From: a virus
Taxonomy: Duplodnaviria > Heunggongvirae > Uroviricota > Caudoviricetes
Direction: 5' to 3' (one strand)
Virus record (IMG/VR): IMGVR_UViG_2585427789_000026
DNA: 10,458 bases
The first letter of the stretch is position 1; every line of letters starts with the position of its first letter. Position numbers and translations under genes: made by a program. The notes under the pieces were generated by a model, which saw only the letters and a program-made list of their open reading frames with translations, was not told the origin of the DNA and ran no database searches. Shown piece after piece: positions 2,196 through 10,458 of the stretch.

Positions 2196-4781
2196 CTACT
2201 CTATCTCTTTTGCTTTTTTAATTATCAATTCAAGCTCTGTTAAACGAGACTCAATGCGTTCACACCTTCTTCGCTGGAATGCAGCCTCCAACCACAAACA
2301 TTCATCTGGACGCAATCCCCAACGCTCACCAGCATGTACAACCAGTTCCGTGTCACCAGTATCGTATTCTTCAAAGTATTCGTGAACGATGTCTTCTCCT
2401 TCAGGGGATTTAGCTATAAATGACACCTTGCGCTGTGCCATTACAGGTTGGTACTCATCATCCCATTTATCATGACATAGCAAGCCAAATCTTGTTCCAT
2501 CTATCCCCTTTGCAAGAAACGCATCTCTTACCTGCTGTGCAATTGCTCCGAAATGCCAACGAGCAGTATCCGAACCTTTAGCCTTAATATCGGACAACCA
2601 CTGGTAAACGATAATATTTACGTCACCCCATGCGTCAAGAATTGCATCCTGATCCACCTCCATGATTTCTGAAAGTTGCTCTACTGTCAGTGGCTTTGTT
2701 TTCAATGTCTGGTCTGAAGTATTTATTGCCCCATTAGTTGCATATACTTGCGTCCACCGTTTAGATGATGTCCCACATGATGACGTATTATCTTTATTAG
2801 CACTTATATAGCCATTAACCTCCGCTGACTGACCGATATACGAATATGAAGATGTTGATAAGGGAGATTTAAATATCCATTGAGCATTGGTAAAGTCATA
2901 AATACCGGTATCACCTTTTTCACTAACATGAAAAGTTACATTCCGTAACGTATTCTTTGCATCATAACGGGCGGCTTGTGTTGTTGCCCTCGAAACAGTG
3001 AATCCTTTGTCATCAAGGTTTGCCTGCTCTATGACTTCACCACCAGGCATAATTTTACCAAGGCTTAACAAACCAGAGTTAGTGACAATATCATGGGTTG
3101 AATCAATGATAATACCAGGCTGATTTCTTGATGTTGTTTTTACATGCATTACCTGTTGTGGCATTAATGTGTAAAATGTAGTTTCTCGCCCACTATCACC
3201 ATCTGGTATGCCATTTGTATTCCCCATTACAAGGTCATACCCACCTGCAATCATACGGAAAAACATTGCTTCTGGTTCATATGTAAGATTGCTAACATCT
3301 GGCGTTCCGGTATCATTTGGATCTGCTATTTCATAGGCTCTTCCTGCACCTGCCTGTATTTGCTGCACCCCAAGATAAACACCATCAAGTGTGTACTGAT
3401 GCAAATATTTTCTGGTTGAAGAATATGCAGATCCAGCCTGACAAAAATAAATAGCAGTACCGTCACACGCAACTGTTTGCATATCCCTCACAAAATCGGC
3501 AATTTCAAATTCAAAAGTTGCTTCATTACGATAATCGTAATTGTACGCCTGCGGGTTAATAAATTTGCTGGTATCAAATACTTTTACATAATAGCGAATT
3601 TGATCTGGTGTTGATGGGCTCTCACCAGGGCCAACATAACGTTTTGCTGTAGTAATCAGCCATCGACTCATAGGGTCGGTGCATAAAACATTTACCTGAT
3701 TCTCGTAACCATCTTCCCATATGAGAAAAAACTCTGGTTCAATTTCACCACCATCAGTAGGGGTGAATCTGGTGATATACTTTGCGCGATCCTCTCCTTT
3801 AGCTGTGCCAGCTAACCCCCATATCTGTAACTGGCCTCTTGTGTTACGAAAACCAACGCGCCCTATGGTTAAACCAAGACATTGATGTCCTAATTCTCTA
3901 CTACCTTTAGTCTCCCAAAGAGGAGTTAACTCTTCATTCCCAAACCAATTATAAGCAACAACTTTATTAACTTCGTCACCAGAACTAACGCTGCCACTCA
4001 CATTTACCAAGCAATAAAGAACACTGTCATAATAATCAAGAACAGCACCCTGTATGACAGTATTTTTAATTGTTGCCAGTCGCAACCCTGACTTAACATG
4101 ATTAGGAGTAGAAGGTCTGAAACCTGTATACATCCCCTTTTTTATAGTTTGTATTCTTTTTTCAGTAAAATCAGCATCTGGCAGTAATCGATTCTCTGTG
4201 CGAAAATAGCCATTTATATACTTATTTCCATCAAAAACTTGATCTGTTATATATGTATTACCCCTTAGATCAACAATCCTTCCTGTGATTTGTTTTTCTA
4301 ACTCTTGAAAAGATAATGTGTCATCGGTGATGCCATCACCTTTTGCTCCCCATCCGCGAGGGTCAGCGTCATCACGCCACCGAGACATCTGCAATTCATG
4401 ATATTTTTTAGCACCTTCCGGGTCTTCTAATTGTTGTCTTAATTGGTCAGGATCGTACTTAAGCACATTCGGAAAATAGAACTGCTGCGTACCATATGCA
4501 TCGTAAACAGCCATAGAATGGCCTTGCACGGTAACGAATTTGGAAATCTGTCCGTTGTATACCGGGTATCCAGCAGCATTGATAACGATTGGCTGTGGCA
4601 CCTGAACATAAGTACCATCTTCTCGTTCCAGATATACTGGAATCTGGTTTTCTGGATTTACCGGATCTGTGTCAATCTTACCGATATAAATTTTTCCATT
4701 TGCTACGGTTTTAAAAGAGCTAGCCATTGTGAAGAGTTGCGATGGCATCCCAATTACAACATTTGGGGTTATATCAGGCAT
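2196..4781 (-). CDS. Phage tailspike: P22-type N-terminal head-binding domain, pectate-lyase-like beta-helix central domain, C-terminal intramolecular chaperone (peptidase S74-like) domain
   Basis: N-terminus [17 protein letters not shown]...[27 protein letters not shown]...[15 protein letters not shown]...NVLKYDPDQ aligns closely with the P22 gp9 / HK620 head-binding domain as recalled. Central [12 protein letters not shown] motif is typical of pectate-lyase-superfamily depolymerases. C-terminal ~173 aa begins SDQTLK (Ser codon 2715-2717), fitting the S-x4-K self-cleavage signature of tail-fibre chaperone domains. Start chosen at ATG 4779-4781 (AGGA 8 nt upstream); the ORF-track start at 4874 has no ribosome-binding site. 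Confidence 0.85.
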
Positions 4782-5197
4782 ATTAGTCATCCTGTTTGAA
4801 GATTTAGATATTGAAGAAAACGGAATGACTGCAGACAAAGATGCAATTGTTTTGAAAAATAACCTTCTATTCATTTAAAAACCATGCAACATGAACAAAA
4901 CGATTATTTTACAATACTCAAGAATCTTGATCAACAGGCATATTATTTATGCGCTTAATGCGTCACTTACAAAAATAAAAACAAGTAATACCTTTATTCC
5001 TATCGTCCATGATTTTTATTTTCAAACATTATTAAATAACAATTCCTATTTATAATATCTGTCATTTAATTTGCTCCAGATACAAGGAATCGCCGCAGCA
5101 TGGCTACGGTGAGCATTTGTTACATACCGAAACGGTACGATTGTTGATTTGTACAGTAGGTTTTACGATGCCATTCCACCCATTTGGTGAGGCATTG

Positions 5198-5455
5198 ATG
5201 ATGTACAGCAAATACGATGAGGCGCAGTTCCACTTGAGGCTTACGCACGAGTTGCACGCTAAGATTAAGCAGCGTGCAAAAATGAATAACAGGTCTATCA
5301 ATTCCGAAATTGTGGCTACGATGGAAGAATCACTCTCCAAACCATCACCTGTAAGCGGGTATCGTGATGAAGAAGAGAGGCTGGACTCATTAATCTCGGA
5401 ACGAGTAAAAGAAGTTGCGGCTGATATCCTTAGAAAAGAAAAAACCCGCGATTAA
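5198..5455 (+). CDS. mnt: Mnt-like ribbon-helix-helix repressor
   Basis: Translation MMYSKYDEAQFHLRLTHELHAKIKQRAKMNNRSINSEIVATMEESLSKPSPVSGYRDEEERL... aligns along its length with P22 Mnt as recalled (…FNFRMP…GRSMNSE…SKPSPVTGYRNDAERL…). GGTGAGG lies 5 nt upstream of the ATG at 5198; a second ATG follows at 5201. Confidence 0.8.
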   Translation: MMYSKYDEAQFHLRLTHELHAKIKQRAKMNNRSINSEIVATMEESLSKPSPVSGYRDEEERLDSLISERVKEVAADILRKEKTRD

Positions 5456-5463
5456 GCGGGTTT
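5442..5463. terminator. Bidirectional intrinsic terminator between convergent mnt and the antirepressor operon
   Basis: Perfect 8-bp stem aaacccgc / gcgggttt with 6-nt loop gattaa, flanked by an A-run upstream (a U-tract for the minus-strand transcript) and ttt on the plus strand. It overlaps the mnt stop codon and lies 7 bp from the stop of the 73-aa ORF. Confidence 0.55.
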
Positions 5464-5469
5464 AGTTGG

Positions 5470-5691
5470 TTAGTTATCAAAAAGTCCGTACGTTTCTTCT
5501 TCTTCAGGTGTAAGGGGAAGAATCTCTACTCTATCTATAGATACCTTTTCAATGTACCCATGAGGCCTACTTAAAATTAAAGCTCTCTCATGCCACAGAA
5601 CTCCAAGAATGTGATACCTTCCAGCATCGCCTTTTACCCTGGCTCTTCCTTTGATTCTTGGCGGCATAATGCCATATTTTTTCTTTGCCAT
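5470..5691 (-). CDS. Hypothetical 73-aa protein (basic N-terminus, acidic C-terminus), translationally coupled to the upstream antirepressor
   Basis: Its ATG (5689-5691) overlaps the TAA stop of the upstream gene (5691-5693) as TAATG; it ends just before the bidirectional terminator. No family recognised. Confidence 0.5.
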   Translation of the reverse strand: MAKKKYGIMPPRIKGRARVKGDAGRYHILGVLWHERALILSRPHGYIEKVSIDRVEILPLTPEEEETYGLFDN

Positions 5692-6416
5692 TATGCAACA
5701 TTACTCCCATGAATAAGGTGTTGTAGTGCTTTAACACCTTCCTCATTGTAGCGGAACGCTTCCACCTGTTTGCTGGAATGCGCAGATTTATCCAGGAAGA
5801 ACTTCCCGTACTGCTCAGTTTTGAGGTTGTTTGCGTTAGCAATGCGACCAATCTTGTTGGCCGTTACTCCAAGCTGCTCTGCAACCTCCCCTGCTGAGTA
5901 GTAATGCTCTTCTATTGCCGGAAGAGGTATTGCATTAAAACCAACGAGCGGGTTGATTATACTTGCTGCCGCTGTCTGCTTTGCCTCCGGCGCAAGATTT
6001 GGCATCAGATCGAACAGATTGGTAACAGCTTCAACCGTCATTTTCAATGTTCGCGCTTGACGATACTCAACAAGTCCACTCGCTGATTTACCGCTTTTAA
6101 TGTGCGCTTCCTGCATACTTTCAAGTTTGTCTACAAGTGTTCGGCGAACTGCTTTAGATTCGCGAGCAGCAACACGAAGCGCCTGCTTGATAGTCATGGA
6201 GATAACATCAATGTCAGCCCCGTTTTTCCGACCTACACTTTTTGTGTAGGTCTCGCCTTCCAATTCATCCTCAATTTTCTCGATGAATTTGTTGTTACGT
6301 ACTGATGGCTCTCCACATAACTTGCGAGCTTCATTAACCATCATCAGAAGACTTTGGCTGTCAATGGTTTTATCCGTGACAACGGATCCGATGTTTGCTA
6401 CATTCTTAAAAGTCAT
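5691..6416 (-). CDS. Phage antirepressor / regulatory protein, Rha-like N-terminus with KilA-C (ANT) C-terminal domain
   Basis: C-terminal YYSAGEVAEQLGVTANKIGRIANANNLKTEQYGKFF...FRYNEEGVKAL fits the KilA-C antirepressor domain pattern; N-terminal ...DSQSLLMMVNEARKL...VRNNKFIEKIE resembles Rha/ORF6N. Start chosen at ATG 6414-6416 (MTFKN..., AAGGA about 7 nt upstream) rather than the ORF-track TTG at 6503. Confidence 0.65.
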   Translation of the reverse strand: MTFKNVANIGSVVTDKTIDSQSLLMMVNEARKLCGEPSVRNNKFIEKIEDELEGETYTKSVGRKNGADIDVISMTIKQALRVAARESKAVRRTLVDKLESMQEAHIKSGKSASGLVEYRQARTLKMTVEAVTNLFDLMPNLAPEAKQTAAASIINPLVGFNAIPLPAIEEHYYSAGEVAEQLGVTANKIGRIANANNLKTEQYGKFFLDKSAHSSKQVEAFRYNEEGVKALQHLIHGSNVA

Positions 6417-6485
6417 TAGGCATTCCTTATGTGGTAGTAAGGGTGTGACATAGGCCGCCAGCAGCACACTGGCGGTTTTCTTTTG
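6411..6485 (+). ncRNA. Putative sar-like antisense RNA covering the start codon and ribosome-binding site of the Rha/KilA-C antirepressor
   Basis: Candidate promoter GTGACA (6376-6381), 17-bp spacer, TACATT (6399-6404) would start transcription near 6411 and end at the terminator above, about 70 nt. The geometry mirrors the P22 sar antisense RNA in the arc-ant region. Confidence 0.35.
6454..6485 (+). terminator. Plus-strand intrinsic terminator in the intercistronic region between the two antirepressor genes
   Basis: Stem ccgccag (6455-6461) / ctggcgg (6469-6475), 7-nt loop, followed on the plus strand by ttttcttttg (6476-6485). The minus-strand side has no U-tract. Confidence 0.55.
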
Positions 6486-6503
6486 CGCAGTCCGGCGCAC
6501 CAA

Positions 6504-7142
6504 TCAATGAATCCATTCCTCGCCGCGAAGTTTTGCCAGCATTGGCTGAGCGTTCTTTACGACAAAATTGTTGGTATCAAGATTCTTCATTTCACGAAGA
6601 AGTGATTTCTTGGTTTCTTCTGACATGTAGCGAGTCTCATATGCAATATCGTAAATCCTTCCTGAAAGCTCAGAACCAATTTGCTTCATTCCTGGGTAGA
6701 TGTGTTTGCACATTTGTTGACTCTTCTCCATCCACAATTGTAAGTAGCAGAGATTAACCAGCTCTTCGTCAGTGAACTGTTTTGCAATCGGTGAGCATTC
6801 TGCCTGCCGATCCAAAATATCCAGCACCCAGCGGCGGAACTCTTTGGCCTTGGGCGTAGAAGCAAACATCGCCACCAAGTGAGCGCCTCGGAGTGAGTAA
6901 ACTCTGACCGATTTGTTACGTAAGCTATTGTTTATTCCGTTGACCTTCATATTGAGGGTCAATGACATTGAGTCGGAAAATTCGTCAGCATTACGGGCAT
7001 AAATTTGGCTGATGGCATCAGTTTTTTTATAGCCGAGAGCCTTAGCTAGTTCGGTGGAGGTAAACCAGATAGACCCGCCCTCTGTTACAGGGTTAAAAGT
7101 GAATCCTTGGAAGTTATAATCTGATTTTGCTACAATATTCAT
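6504..7142 (-). CDS. Phage antirepressor with Bro-N / AntA-type N-terminal domain
   Basis: N-terminal ...FQGFTFNPVTEGGSIWFTSTELAKALGY...VYSLRGAHLVAMFASTPKAKEFRRWVLDILD matches the Bro-N / antirepressor N-domain pattern. Start chosen at ATG 7140-7142 (MNIVAKSDYNFQ, AAGGAAA 6 nt upstream), downstream of the arc stop; the ORF-track start at 7247 overlaps arc. Confidence 0.65.
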   Translation of the reverse strand: MNIVAKSDYNFQGFTFNPVTEGGSIWFTSTELAKALGYKKTDAISQIYARNADEFSDSMSLTLNMKVNGINNSLRNKSVRVYSLRGAHLVAMFASTPKAKEFRRWVLDILDRQAECSPIAKQFTDEELVNLCYLQLWMEKSQQMCKHIYPGMKQIGSELSGRIYDIAYETRYMSEETKKSLLREMKNLDTNNFVVKNAQPMLAKLRGEEWIH

Positions 7143-7220
7143 GTTAGTTTCCTTGAGTACGGTTACTGACATAGAGGCCCGGTTTGTGTTCGCGCACTGC
7201 CGGGCTTCACTATTTTTATT
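7143..7220 (+). ncRNA. Putative second sar-like antisense RNA covering the ribosome-binding site of the Bro-N antirepressor
   Basis: Candidate promoter TTGGAA (7107-7112), 18-bp spacer, TACAAT (7131-7136) would start transcription at about 7143, beside the Bro-N start codon, and run about 70 nt to the hairpin and T-tract at 7174-7220. Same geometry as the 6411-6485 unit. Confidence 0.3.
7174..7220 (+). terminator. Plus-strand terminator-like hairpin with T-rich tail at the arc 3' end, upstream of the Bro-N gene
   Basis: GC stem gcccgg (7177-7182) / ccgggc (7200-7205) with extension, followed on the plus strand by ttcactatttttatt. The minus-strand side has no U-tract. Confidence 0.4.
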
Positions 7221-7389
7221 GGATGACAACATCGCCCTTTGCCTCAAGTTTCATTAATAACTCCATTCGATAAGCTATCTCTGCCTGAATTGACCTATGG
7301 CATCTTTTTGCTGATTCGCGGATATGTGAATCAACCTTTTCTGTAAAACGAACCTGACGCGGCTTGATGGAAGATATCTTTTCAGTCAT
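7216..7389 (-). CDS. arc: Arc-like ribbon-helix-helix repressor (57 aa; not in the supplied ORF track)
   Basis: Hand translation of the complement strand: MTEKISSIKPRQVRFTEKVDSHIRESAKRCHRSIQAEIAYRMELLMKLEAKGDVVIQ-stop. It aligns with P22 Arc as recalled (…PQFNLRWPREVLDLVRKVAEENGRSVNSEIYQRVMESF…). AGGAG lies 6 nt upstream of the ATG at 7387-7389. Confidence 0.7.
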   Translation of the reverse strand: MTEKISSIKPRQVRFTEKVDSHIRESAKRCHRSIQAEIAYRMELLMKLEAKGDVVIQ

Positions 7390-7435
7390 TATGCACTCCT
7401 GTTTTTGAAAAACTCATAATCTCACTTTTTGTAGT

Positions 7436-7467
7436 TTGATTATTCACTCACACTCAGTATGAGTCAA
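7436..7467. promoter_or_regulatory. Overlapping divergent promoters with candidate operator (palindrome ACTCA-gta-TGAGT plus ACTCA repeats) between arc and the CI-like gene
   Basis: Minus strand: TTGACT (complement of 7462-7467), 17 bp, AATAAT (complement of 7439-7444), reading into arc. Plus strand: TTGATT (7436-7441), about 16 bp, TATGAG, a weaker promoter reading into the CI-like gene. The 13-bp palindrome at 7452-7464 overlaps both; further ACTCA half-sites at 7412 and 7445. Confidence 0.4.
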
Positions 7468-7488
7468 TGAATTTTTTATGGTGAACTA

Positions 7489-8130
7489 ATGAATTTTGAC
7501 GATCAATTCCCATCAAGAGTATCTCTGGCAAGACAGTCCAGGGGTATGACGCAGGCGCAGTTGTCAAAATTAGCTGGTGTTGTTCAACGTCAAATAGCTG
7601 CATACGAGGGTGGTGAGGCTAAACCACGGCTTCGGGTATTGCAGGCATTAGCCAACGCATTAGGTACTACGGCTGAGTGGTTAGCTCTAGGTGAAGGTCA
7701 GGGTCCGGGAACAAAAAACGTCATGCCTGACGTTCTGGTAAAGCAAATACCAATTCTCAAACTAGATGAAGTTATGCATTACCTAAACACAGGTGAACAT
7801 TCATCGTCTAGATTTCATCCTGCAATATACAATGTTGGTGACTCTGCATTTGCATTGACTATTGAAGGTGAAGCTATGACTACAAGTTCAGGTATTAGCT
7901 TTCCCAGAGGATCGGTTGTCACGTTCAGCCCTCTAGTAAAAGCTAAAAGCAAAGATTATGTAATAGCATCATTGGATAAAGAGCAAATATTGAGCTTCAA
8001 ACAGGTTTACATTGGTGAAATAGAGACAAACCTAGTATCCCTAAACCCAATGTATCCTAATATTCTTGTTAGAAATGAAGATGTTAGTATTTTGGCAACC
8101 GCAGTTTACCTTGAAATCCCGTTGCTTTGA
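7489..8130 (+). CDS. CI-like repressor (XRE-type HTH plus LexA/S24-like C-terminal domain) with catalytic Ser and cleavage site replaced
   Basis: N-terminal HTH (…GMTQAQLSKLAGVVQRQIAAYEGG…); C-terminal GDSAFALTIEGEAM…SFPRG…LSFKQV…LNPMYP aligns with lambda CI GDSAFWLEVEGNSM…SFPDG…FTFKKL…LNPQYP. The G-x-S-M nucleophile position reads Ala (GCT 7873-7875) and the Ala-Gly scissile position reads Asp-Glu. Confidence 0.8.
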   Translation: MNFDDQFPSRVSLARQSRGMTQAQLSKLAGVVQRQIAAYEGGEAKPRLRVLQALANALGTTAEWLALGEGQGPGTKNVMPDVLVKQIPILKLDEVMHYLNTGEHSSSRFHPAIYNVGDSAFALTIEGEAMTTSSGISFPRGSVVTFSPLVKAKSKDYVIASLDKEQILSFKQVYIGEIETNLVSLNPMYPNILVRNEDVSILATAVYLEIPLL

Positions 8131-8190
8131 TATCCTTTAGGAGGCGACACATTATCATCTGGTATCCTGCTCAAAACTAAGGAGGTTGGT

Positions 8191-8379
8191 GTGAAGAAAA
8201 AATTTGTAAACGTTGCAAAGTGCGCAATTTTTATATTTTTTATGACCTTTTACGGATTTAGTGCCGGAGAAGGTTTCGATCGTGATGCCAATGCATTCAG
8301 TTTCTTTTGTCTGTCTATAGTGGTCATAATTGTATGGGTGGAATTAAAGCAAACATTGTTTCATGTGCTAAGGAAATAA
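8191..8379 (+). CDS. Hypothetical small membrane protein (62 aa) downstream of the CI-like repressor
   Basis: GTG start 5 nt after a strong TAAGGAGG (8178-8185). Lys-rich N-terminus followed by two hydrophobic segments. Same strand as the CI-like gene, 60 bp downstream. Confidence 0.5.
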   Translation: MKKKFVNVAKCAIFIFFMTFYGFSAGEGFDRDANAFSFFCLSIVVIIVWVELKQTLFHVLRK

Positions 8380-8396
8380 CCATCCATGGCATTTAG

Positions 8397-8931
8397 TCAC
8401 TGCTGTGTTGCCTCAGTGGCAAGCAGCGGTCTGATGGCATTTGCAGCGTTACTTAATGCTCTTTCATAGGCTGGCGTTCCTGCTTTGGTGTTTGCCAGAC
8501 GTAAGAGCGCATTCCTGGCCATAGGGCTTTCATAAACCCTCGACATAAGGCCAATCCCTGTTTCCCCAGCCAATAGCGCGCCTCCGGTTTTTAGGTTACC
8601 AATAACCCTTACCAAAGGCGCGAGTGTCATGCCAGTCTTCGTCACAACATTAGCCTCAGATGCTCTTTTGGTAGCATCGAGAATAGATAACATCCCCTCT
8701 ATCTCTTTTCCGTTCTTCCCACCAAATACAGTTTTAAACACCTGACCATTTGCTTGTTTTTGCAGCTTGCCAAGCTCGGTCATCATTTTCTGAGGGCTGT
8801 CACCTACCTTGTCAGCTATTTTGCTGATATATGCCGCCCTTAGCATGTCTTTACCTTTTTGATCGAGTTTCCCGTACAATCGAGCTATATCTGACCCATA
8901 TTGTCCATACACAATGGTATTTACAGCCTCG
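8397..8931 (-). pseudogene. 3' fragment of a phage late gene (putative DNA-ejection / internal virion protein, gp16-like by position), truncated by IS66 insertion
   Basis: The reading frame stays open upstream of the listed GTG (8912) straight into the IS66 end, with no convincing ribosome-binding site. The protein is low-complexity and Ala/Gly/Lys-rich. The gp16 assignment rests only on position relative to P22 gene order. Confidence 0.4.
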
Positions 8932-10458
8932 GTAAGCGGCTCGCCAGAACCGTATTGATATTTACTGAGAGGTCAGATCAACTTTCCAGGGCAACAGATC
9001 GCGTACCCGGTTTGCCGGCCAATCCTGGATATGCTCAATGACGTAACGCAGCCATTTTTCTGGTTCCACATTGTTCAGACGGCATGTGCCGATCAGCGAG
9101 TACAACACCGCCGCATGTTCGCCACCGCTGTCGGAACCCGCGAACAGCCAGTTTTTCCGGCCTACGGCCACTCCCCGTAAGGCGTTCTCTGCGATGTTGT
9201 TGTCGATTTCCACCCAGCCATTACTGCAGTACACGTTCAGGCCATCCCACTGTTTCAGCAGGTATGCGAACGCTTTTGCCGTATCCGAGTGACGCGACAG
9301 TGTTTTCATCTGAGTCTGTATCCAGTCATACAGTGACTGCATCAGTGGCGCGGCTCTGGCTTTTCTTGCCGCCAGACGCTGTTCTGCTGAACATCCCCGG
9401 ACTTCTGCCTCGATGGCATACAGTTCACCGATACGCTGCAGGGCTTCCGTGGTGATGTCGGTGGGCACTCTTGCATGCACATCGTGGATTTTTCTCCGGG
9501 CATGAGCCATACACGCGGCTTCCGTTATTCTGCCGGATTCGTATAACACCCGGTAACCACCGTAAGCATCGGCCTGAAGCACACCGCTGTAACCGGCCAG
9601 ATGATTTTGTGGATGGATACCTTTCCGGTCCGGTGAGTACGCGAACCAGACCGCCGGGGGCATTTCCGAACCGGCGTTACGGTCATCACGGACGTAGACC
9701 CACAGCCGGGCGGTCCGGGTTTTACCGCTGCCCGGCTCCTGGACCGGGACGGGGATATCATCAGCATGGACTTTACCGGGCATCAGCACATACTGGCGCA
9801 GGACGTCATACAGCGGCTCCAGCAGTTCAGCAACGGCACCTGTCCAGCGCCCCAGCGTGGCGCGGCTCAGCTCCACGCCCTGGCGACGGTATATTTCTGA
9901 CTGGCGGTATAACGGCAGATGGTCTGCATATTTCCCGGTAACAACATGGGCCAGAAGCCCCGCTCCGGCATAACTGCGTGCAATGGGTTTTGAAGGTACT
10001 GTTGCCTGCACGATATGGTCGCACCGACAACAGGCCAGTTTCGGACGTTGTGTTTCGATAACCTTAAAGGCGCTGCTGATAAGCTCCAGTTGCTCTGACA
10101 CATCACACCCCAGAGGACTGAGGTCACCACCACAGGCCGGGCAGCATTCCTCTTCCGGCCGGATGACCCGGGTTTCACGGGGAAGTGAGGCCGGTAACGG
10201 TTTACGGGCTGAAGACTGGCGCAGGGCGGATGGCAGTACCGGGTCATATTGCTCACCCAGCGTTTCCGCCATTTCTTCCTGAAGTGCGCTGATTCGCTCC
10301 TGTGCTTCCTGTATCTGCCGTTCGGTTTTAGCGCGAAGTTTTTCTGAGCTTTTACCGAACTGCATGCGCTGCAGTTTCGCAACCAGCGCCTTCAGCCGGT
10401 TGATTTCGGAAGCATAAGCCGCCACCCGCTGTGAGAGCAGGCGGTTGTATTTCGCCAT
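8932..10458 (-). mobile_element. IS66-family insertion sequence, right end, continuing beyond the window
   Basis: GC-rich block beginning GTAAGCGGC at 8932, consistent with the GTAA terminus typical of IS66-family inverted repeats as recalled, 30 bp from the transposase stop. Sharp composition change from the AT-rich phage sequence. Confidence 0.75.
8962..10458 (-). CDS. tnpC: IS66-family transposase (TnpC/orf3), N-terminally truncated by the window edge
   Basis: 498-aa ORF ending ...[11 protein letters not shown], with leucine-zipper-like N-region, CxxC...CxC zinc motif (CPACGG...CCRCDH) and a conserved catalytic core. The M at 10458 corresponds to an internal position in full-length IS66 TnpC as recalled, so the true start lies outside the window. 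Confidence 0.9.

Follow-up and report, generated by a model that had tools for sequence, protein, structure and literature searches.

Phage P22 makes a small antisense RNA, sar, which pairs with the ribosome-binding region of the antirepressor gene ant, blocks its translation, and is needed besides the protein repressors (PMC12197685). For the primary work on sar, PMC2629481 cites Liao et al. 1987 along with Wu et al. 1987. Here, we analyzed a 10,458-nucleotide (nt) stretch of Caudoviricetes DNA, IMG/VR record IMGVR_UViG_2585427789_000026, and "the window" below means this whole stretch. A minus-strand operon of four genes lies in it, in the order 57-amino-acid (aa) gene, ant1, ant2, and 73-aa gene, and two sar-like units lie on the plus strand, unit 1 (6411-6485) facing ant2 and unit 2 (7143-7218) facing ant1. 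We consider it likely that this arc-like/ant1/ant2 operon carries two independent plus-strand cis-antisense RNA genes of about 75 nt each, both built like P22 sar.

In the P22 record, sar (70 nt) is annotated along with a terminator and with a promoter that falls within ant codons 2-12. The RNA starts at the base next to the ATG, and its 3' end is found at the stop codon of arc, the small repressor gene that precedes ant. Both units of the window have the same build in common with sar (RF00262), which is a cis-antisense RNA of about 70 nt with a promoter in the first antirepressor codons, a covered ribosome-binding site, and a 5' stem-loop followed by a terminator. Unit 2 also has a recognizable sequence likeness to sar, but it faces an antirepressor of the Bro-N/P22_AR_C type, follows a small gene that is not arc, and ends in a terminator with an internal loop. 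Unit 1 differs from sar in its terminator sequence, in starting 3 nt inside the coding region, and in following an antirepressor gene rather than arc. While P22 has one antisense RNA of this kind, the operon of the window appears to have two.

Several other small RNAs have parts of this design. The c4 RNA of P1 and P7 (immI, icd-ant) likewise blocks antirepressor synthesis by pairing around the ribosome-binding site. However, c4 is processed from the transcript of its own target and acts via short complementary loops, and it is not a fully complementary convergent transcript. Sequence variants of c4 define heteroimmunity (PMC12197685). The OOP RNA of lambda and P22 (antisense to cII/c1), P22 sas, and anti-Q are likewise short convergent transcripts that have their own promoter and intrinsic terminator and tune lysis-lysogeny genes, but they cover their targets internally or at the 3' end, and not where translation of an antirepressor gene starts. 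An Rfam search of the window gave no match to OOP, sas, or anti-Q. Finally, the plasmid countertranscript ctRNA_pGA1 and the type I antitoxin RNA SymR are likewise two-hairpin cis-antisense RNAs of 70-80 nt that lie over a ribosome-binding site, although their genetic context is different.

Anatomy of the two predicted units

A preliminary description of the window had placed a hairpin followed by a T-run, on the plus strand only, in both intercistronic regions around ant1, and both were located there by the terminator scan and by folding. In unit 1, the stem (6452-6478) and the T-run (6476-6485) were detected by the scan on the plus strand only. The promoter of this unit lies inside ant2 codons 5-14 on the plus strand and, as seen in the promoter scan, consists of a -35 GTGACA (6376-6381), a 17-nt spacer, a TG (6396-6397), and a -10 TACATT (6399-6404). 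The predicted plus-strand RNA (6411-6485) would be about 72-75 nt long with A6411 as its +1, and it is complementary to the ant2 start codon and Shine-Dalgarno sequence. On folding, its stem I is formed by GUC 6412-6414 with GAC 6447-6449 around an inner helix.

In unit 2, the fold gave a plus-strand stem at 7174-7208 with a T-run at 7211-7217. The stem is interrupted by an internal loop, which is why the simple terminator scan missed this hairpin. The promoter scan found a -35 TTGGAA (7107-7112), an 18-nt spacer, a TG (7128-7129), and a -10 TACAAT (7131-7136) on the plus strand inside ant1 codons 2-12. The predicted plus-strand RNA, as delimited by a covariance model and the fold, would span about 73-76 nt (7143-7218) from G7143, and its stem I pairs 7143-7148 with 7165-7170 and displays an anti-Shine-Dalgarno UUCC in the loop.

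Both promoters, GTGACA-17-TACATT and TTGGAA-18-TACAAT, are present as they had been proposed, and each has the TG of an extended -10. The proposed location of the start sites at the downstream start codons also agreed with our coordinates, since the predicted A6411 is 3 nt inside the ant2 open reading frame (ORF) and the predicted G7143 is directly beside the ant1 ATG. Each unit spans the Shine-Dalgarno sequence and the start codon of its target completely. At its 3' end, the T-run of unit 2 overlaps the stop codon (7216-7218) of the 57-aa gene, which encodes a weakly ribbon-helix-helix-like protein that is not similar to Arc; the gene upstream of unit 1 is ant1, not arc.

The hairpin of unit 2 had been called the weaker of the two, and this had to be reversed. 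Its fold (80 nt) had a free energy of -33.3 kcal/mol (z = -5.7, with 0/200 shuffles as good) compared to -26.6 kcal/mol (z = -2.0) for unit 1, and it belongs to the unit that is the canonical sar homolog. The folds of the minus strand were weaker, with z = -1.4 and -2.3 compared to -2.0 and -5.7 on the plus strand, and no T-run follows either hairpin on the minus strand.

Unit 2 and the P22 sar family

Sequence comparison supports unit 2 as a diverged member of the P22 sar family and a canonical sar homolog. P22 and the window share the element TTGCTA(T/C)A(C/A)TATTCATG, which runs from the -10 through four bases and the complemented start codon of ant to the +1. The -10 of unit 2 is at the same offset as the annotated -10 of P22 Psar, 4 nt before CAT. 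The 5' stem is GUUGGU/ACUGAC in P22 and GUUAGU/ACUGAC in unit 2, and both terminators read GA(A/G)GCCC...GGGCTTC, with a T-run behind it extending to the stop codon of the small gene that comes before. We also compared 27 distinct sar relatives, drawn from loci that were retrieved by way of ant2 homologs and from P22 and SPN3UB, a Salmonella phage. TAnnnT was present at the -10 position in 27/27 of them despite differing encoded residues.

A leave-out covariance model, R2, was built from 11 relatives (P22 sar and ten others), with all sequences that carry the window-type hairpin excluded. R2 matched 7143-7218 over its full length with 34.6 bits and an E-value of about 1e-4, which is rough as are all the covariance-model E-values here, and the next best match in the window had 10.2 bits. 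Both helices co-vary, as seen when true partners were compared with slid ones. Among 18 distinct relatives, 88.7% of the cells were paired compared to at most 55% with the partner slid. Among 61 distinct relatives, these values were 93.6% and at most 61.5%, and 106 double-change cells were counted compared to 36 in shuffles.

The Rfam search of the window, including matches with E up to 10, returned no sar (RF00262, gathering threshold 43 bits) and nothing credible over either unit. In a control, the same Rfam model scored P22 at 97.8 bits and confirmed the two-hairpin structure; a model that scores P22 this well and yet misses the window is too narrow. Unit 2 did have a match to SymR (RF01809) at 7140-7211 with 21 bits and E = 0.56, which did not reach the gathering threshold of 61 bits, and P22 sar itself had a weak match to ctRNA_pGA1 (24 bits) that was also far below threshold (61 and 45 bits for SymR and ctRNA_pGA1, respectively). 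These matches probably reflect only the shared two-hairpin antisense architecture.

Unit 1 and its cassette family

Unit 1 is not detectably sar by sequence and is assigned to a separate sequence family with the same build. Full-length homologs of ant2 were found in 80 viral contigs and ten species-level genomes. All of them had the same layout, and the gene upstream of the hairpin differed, encoding Bro-N/P22_AR_C, Bro-N alone, ORF6N, or DUF551. GTGACA, TG, T-A-x-A-x-T, and the +1 A were invariant in 14 and in 20 ant2 homologs, as was the 17-nt spacer among the 20. In a codon alignment of these 20 (60-100% aa identity), 14 of 238 third-codon positions were invariant, and seven of the 14 were in the first 15 codons, namely in the ATG and in codons 2, 5, 6, 7, 12, and 13. 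The third positions of these last six codons are, in order, the +1 A, positions 4 and 1 of the -10, the T of the TG, and positions 6 and 3 of the -35. Third positions were, thus, invariant in 6/6 codons in promoter elements compared to 0/6 in the spacers (codons 3, 4, and 8-11) and 7/223 elsewhere in ant2. The encoded residues vary (for example N/T, V/L, or A/T/S) at five of the six codons, 2, 5, 6, 7, and 12. Third positions that stay fixed while residues vary are the opposite of what protein-level constraint would produce, and they fit a sigma-70 promoter with a 17-nt spacer.

Another possible explanation for why bases within ant2 codons 1-14 are invariant is that they form a protein-binding operator, a leader-peptide signal, or an mRNA feature instead of a promoter. 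The variable residues at codons 2, 5, 6, 7, and 12 with their fixed third positions are difficult to reconcile with this, even though residues V13 and T14 are invariant and unrelated domains have the leader M-T-x-x-N-[VLI]-A-x3-S-V-V-T in common at their N-terminus. The motif is also not palindromic, is always at a fixed distance from the antisense terminator, and fits a sigma-70 -35/17/TGn/-10/+1 arrangement down to which positions of the -10 vary. We regard this explanation as very unlikely and favor a promoter.

The terminator of unit 1 was evaluated in 18 protein-anchored variants. It was 98.8% paired compared to at most 54% when slid, and it had 12 double-change cells compared to 2.5 in shuffles. 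Compensatory change was seen at four pairs, with examples being GCCGCCAG/CTGGCGGC changed to GCCGATAG/CTATCGGC, GCCAGCAG/CTGTTGGC, and ACCAGCAG/CTGCTGGT. The predicted 5' end of the RNA paired with the segment before the terminator in 16/20 protein-anchored members. These comparisons support selection on unit 1 as a promoter plus terminator.

A G-U pair forms on one strand only because its complement is an A-C mismatch, which allows the strand of a conserved helix to be determined. The unit 1 terminator had 17 G-U cells and 0 A-C cells, and the robust pairs of the sar family had 126 G-U cells and 1 A-C cell. This excess of G-U indicates that the conserved helices belong to a plus-strand RNA and would be mismatched in the ant mRNA. 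The T-run was on the antisense strand in every locus compared. We considered whether the hairpins could act in the sense mRNA instead, as processing sites, as 3'-end stabilizers of the upstream cistron, or as modulators of translational coupling. Both are intercistronic in a polycistronic mRNA, their Watson-Crick cores also form there (minus-strand folds of -19.5 kcal/mol), and there is another small GC hairpin (6485-6500) beyond the ant1 stop codon. Nevertheless, the G-U bias and the strand of the T-run, the weaker minus-strand folds, and the annotation of the homologous P22 hairpin as the sar terminator make a role in the sense mRNA improbable compared to one in an antisense RNA.

Unit 1 appears to be one member of a large, widespread, and apparently undescribed cassette family. 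Viral contigs were searched for GCCGCCAG, 5-9 nt, and CTGGCGGTTTTT with a T-run, which gave at least 120 stretches. These loci were chosen by their hairpin sequence, and the matches listed among them included 84 distinct contexts, to which the counts and gene types given next refer. The family terminator is (A/G)GCCGCCAG, 5-9 nt, and CTGGCGG(T/C)T followed by a T-run, antisense to the 5' end of an antirepressor-like gene, and 6452-6485 of the window fits it with AGGCCGCCAG-CAGCACA-CTGGCGGTTTTCTTTT. The family promoter is a -35 (G/T)(T/C)GACA, a 17-nt spacer, TGnTAnnnT, and a purine +1, and unit 1 fits this as well with GTGACA-17-TGCTACATT and +1 A6411. In 73/84 contexts, the hairpin was preceded at 39-56 nt by the end of such a promoter, with a -35 (at least 4/6), a 17-nt spacer, and TGnTAnnnT; among 1168 control windows taken from these loci, 2.0% had the motif. 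Five further contexts had TTGACT-16-GATAAT, bringing the total with a correctly spaced promoter to 78/84, and the remaining six were unrelated terminators. The genes faced were of the ant2 type, the ORF6N type, the Rha type (with the Pfam domain starting from residue 15), and the Bro-N type. Terminator, 5' stem, ribosome-binding site, start codon, and a promoter-bearing leader of ~14 codons move as one cassette in this family, joined to no fewer than four unrelated antirepressor N-terminal domains.

The promoter is located in a short leader outside of the recognizable domains. SPN3UB gp22 is an ORF6N-type target of the family, and no homology was found between it and ant2; therefore, the promoter motif that they share is not due to protein homology. 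The -10 is 24 nt from the start codon in the ORF6N cassettes compared to 9 nt otherwise. Even with the 24-nt promoters included, the predicted 5' end closed stem I in 87% of 55 distinct members compared to 23% of shuffles. Promoter position and RNA fold move together, which provides independent support for the predicted start sites. This was determined by folding each sequence against its shuffles since MAFFT alignments of the 5' domain were too poor for column covariation of stem I. Similarly, single-linkage clustering of the target proteins gave one cluster because of domain shuffling and was replaced with Pfam scans of representatives.

These results bear on the possibility that unit 2 is a real sar homolog and that the 6452-6485 hairpin is a passive plus-strand terminator or insulator, with no small RNA made from 6411. 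On this view, the hairpin would stop antisense read-through, for example from the convergent mnt-like gene (5198-5455) upstream on the plus strand, whose own hairpin (5442-5463) has no plus-strand T-run; the -35 of unit 1 also matches the consensus at 4/6 positions. However, a passive terminator does not account for promoter elements 50-75 nt upstream of the hairpin that are kept at synonymous sites with invariant 17-nt spacing, or for the promoter motif in 73/84 listed contexts (2% of controls), among them phages with no convergent gene such as SPN3UB. Also, the predicted 5' end of unit 1 is the base of a conserved stem. We find a passive terminator unlikely, although it is the alternative to a unit 1 RNA that we take most seriously.

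The preliminary description had remarked that a tandem pair, one per antirepressor, is unlike P22. P22 does have one such RNA, but the tandem is not peculiar to the window. Among the first 100 hairpin-anchored loci, a sar-family match (E < 0.001) was found one gene away in 77, lying 469-957 nt past the T-run and on the same strand. One locus had the sar match on the opposite strand. Of the 22 loci with no sar match, 11 had a contig that ended within 760 nt on that side, and five were unrelated terminators. By these sequence matches, the layout of a sar-type unit and a unit 1-type unit in tandem is the norm for the unit 1 family. In one locus (L114), a Rha-type cassette of the unit 1 family with its hairpin at 5040-5065 directly follows a 59-aa ribbon-helix-helix gene, which indicates that the family is able to occupy the first (sar) position of the operon.

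The hairpin is also found at mosaic boundaries. The ant DNA of SPN3UB is 95.5% identical to 6454-7144 of the window, from the hairpin through the ant1 start codon, and in other loci the junction comes right after the T-run. The edge of the SPN3UB match at 6454 and the junctions after the T-run both place the conserved hairpin at these boundaries.

The distribution suggests that the unit 1 family is a second unannotated family, widespread in prophages of Escherichia coli, Salmonella, Klebsiella, Serratia, Erwinia, and others. In addition, two Pseudomonas loci (L228 and L233, at about 1380-1500) contain distant relatives of the ant2 N-terminus with an antisense-oriented hairpin and T-run directly before the start codon, and a gene of Erwinia tracheiphila (L226, at about 1380-1500) has a sar-type hairpin. 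The layout of an antisense terminator before an antirepressor gene may extend well beyond the enterobacterial phages.

Neither phage JEP4 nor the RefSeq genomes of E. coli have a noncoding RNA annotated where the units lie. In the searchable literature, we looked for a second sar-like RNA and for work on P22-like immI transcriptomes, BTP1/STnc6030, and JEP4, and P22 sar was all that came up; a study comparing the "ant moron" across P22-like phages names sar for P22 and epsilon34 only. The unit 1 family is missing from Rfam, RefSeq annotation, and the searchable literature. The family and the stacked layout are apparently new, and unit 2 is apparently a new member of the sar family.

The operon, its prophage, and the proposed control of the antirepressors

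The window is part of a P22-like (Lederbergvirus-type) prophage in an E. coli chromosome, adjoining dacD. Over 5400-8200, it has 100% identity with Escherichia phage JEP4 and with a number of complete genomes of E. coli; strains E100341 and AST19 are examples that carry the exact operon region, and 98/5426 complete genomes hold a match to the region. The operon's candidate promoter, TTGACT-17-AATAAT (7439-7467, minus strand), is the best promoter-like match of the region (10/12); it is placed analogously to P22 Pant and is convergent with both antisense promoters. The first gene (57 aa, 7216-7389, minus strand) encodes a putative ribbon-helix-helix (arc-like) protein, with a Pfam match to ParD_like (E = 8e-4) that is below the cut-off. 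BLASTP gave no alignment of this protein with P22 Arc or with the Arc-like protein of SPN3UB, and a PDB search returned solely AmrZ as a weak match (E = 0.8). The ant1 gene (6504-7142, minus strand, ATG 7142-7140), which faces the sar homolog, encodes a 212-aa antirepressor-like protein with the Pfam domains Bro-N and P22_AR_C that matches PHROG 245, "anti-repressor Ant". The ant2 gene (5691-6416, minus strand, ATG 6416-6414), which faces unit 1, encodes a 241-aa antirepressor-like protein that matches PHROG 1726, "anti-repressor" (E = 2e-102). A Pfam search with ant2 gave no match, and its C-terminal half is found elsewhere joined to Rha or Bro-N N-terminal domains in related cassettes. The operon had previously been labeled arc/Bro-N/KilA-C. 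Of these labels, Bro-N was recovered in ant1, but the "KilA-C" gene had no Pfam match and "arc" encodes a protein with a weak ribbon-helix-helix signal and no similarity to Arc. The last gene (73 aa) is at 5470-5691 on the minus strand and is followed by the operon-end terminator (5442-5463, minus strand), as seen in the terminator scan.

A few other features of the region were recorded. A gene for a C2/LexA-like repressor with helix-turn-helix and peptidase S24 domains (7489-8130, plus strand) diverges from the arc-like operon at the place that mnt takes in P22. The mnt-like ribbon-helix-helix gene mentioned above (5198-5455, plus strand) is convergent at the far end of the operon; the immI layout, thus, differs from that of P22. 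The stop codon of the mnt-like gene overlaps the 5442-5463 hairpin, whose T-run is on the minus strand only. A weak plus-strand hairpin with a T-run at 5659-5684 falls within the opening codons of the 73-aa gene, immediately beyond the end of ant2. No matching promoter was seen for it, and it could be either chance or a third antisense terminator. The GC hairpin TGCGC-agtccg-GCGCA (6485-6500) is between the unit 1 T-run and the ant1 stop codon, and an element of the form GCGC, 6-8 nt, GCGC recurs at the corresponding place behind many ant1-type genes.

Farther out, in 8397-10458, an IS66-family transposase gene (8962-10458, minus strand) abuts a 171-aa ORF that matches just the C-terminal end (profile 481-663 of 668) of a gene-16-like DNA-transfer protein, the intact gene of which is 1866 nt in JEP4. 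The prophage is probably disrupted by an IS insertion. The tailspike gene (2196-4874) has a P22 head-binding domain, an endosialidase N-terminal extension, and an S74 chaperone domain, a set that would suit a polysialic-acid (K1) capsule. On the host side, dacD forms the flank, with no tRNA and no integrase between the tailspike gene and dacD, and a tRNA scan for an attachment site found none.

By analogy with P22 sar, we propose the following mechanism for the two predicted RNAs. Each would be driven by an extended -10 sigma-70 promoter within the first codons of the facing cistron, would start at or next to the start codon, would run across the Shine-Dalgarno sequence, and would form a 5' stem-loop and an intrinsic terminator that ends just past the preceding stop. 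Base pairing of each RNA with the polycistronic mRNA at the place where translation of its own cistron begins would then keep ribosomes from binding. The 7143 RNA would act on ant1 and the 6411 RNA on ant2, so that the antirepressors would be gated separately. A lone sar would leave the independent ribosome-binding site of the second cistron uncontrolled, which could be the reason for one RNA per cistron. In P22, in vitro work reportedly showed that the antisense promoter is occluded by convergent transcription from the operon promoter until the operon promoter is repressed. By analogy with P22, we would guess that both antisense promoters here are similarly occluded until repression and that RNase III may cleave the sense-antisense duplex.

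Several points argue against two RNAs of this kind. Unit 1 scored just 8.3 bits (E = 3.5) with the sar model R1, had no match with R2, and was unrecognized by Rfam; for unit 1, then, "sar-like" refers to architecture, not homology. The preliminary claim that the P22 sar arrangement is duplicated is, thus, supported for the anatomy of both units and for the homology of unit 2 (34.6 bits), but it does not extend to the sequence of unit 1. The sequences that are unbiased for the unit 1 stem were only the 18-20 protein-anchored ones, which are phylogenetically related. The hairpin-anchored loci were selected by stem sequence and, thus, could not be used for stem covariation, and a covariance model made from them would be circular. 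The antirepressor function of ant1 and ant2 is suggested by their family names alone. No transcript data (RNA-seq, start-site, or Northern) for the prophage or JEP4 were found in the searchable literature. Lastly, both -35 hexamers match the consensus at just 4/6 positions, and the region contained six promoter-like sites compared to 6.3 expected from shuffles.

The last of these points, together with the five terminator-like sites found compared to 2.5 expected, which we judged from the window alone to be no more than chance, could also mean that all of the promoter and terminator matches are coincidental. Since consensus matches are no more common than in shuffles, the window alone proves nothing and significance comes only from the comparative analysis; the promoter and terminator scan was, therefore, used solely to confirm coordinates. 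Chance is nonetheless a negligible explanation because the conservation and covariation data effectively refute it, and two antisense RNA genes are the reading that we favor.

A broader view of the unit 1 family is possible, and we offer it tentatively, with slightly more doubt than conviction. The terminator, 5' stem, ribosome-binding site, start codon, and promoter leader of ~14 codons may together form a portable self-regulating cassette that is common in the antirepressor genes of enterobacterial temperate phages. Fused to at least four unrelated N-terminal domains and stacked behind a sar-type cassette, it would give one RNA gate per cistron. The hairpin would serve as the recombination joint, and divergence of the RNAs could lead to an immunity-like specificity between co-resident prophages.

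A textbook antisense RNA, sar of P22 has nevertheless been treated as a single-copy peculiarity of one phage, and its Rfam model recognizes essentially P22 alone. The data here suggest that the relatives of sar are far more diverse than annotated, and that multi-antirepressor operons gate each cistron with its own RNA. In the protein leader of ant2, synonymous sites would be frozen because they spell a promoter on the opposite strand, which is a form of overlapping coding. Both RNA families are missed by current genome annotation. Since antirepressors decide prophage induction and the cross-talk between prophages, these RNAs are candidates for a hidden control of induction in pathogenic E. coli and Salmonella.

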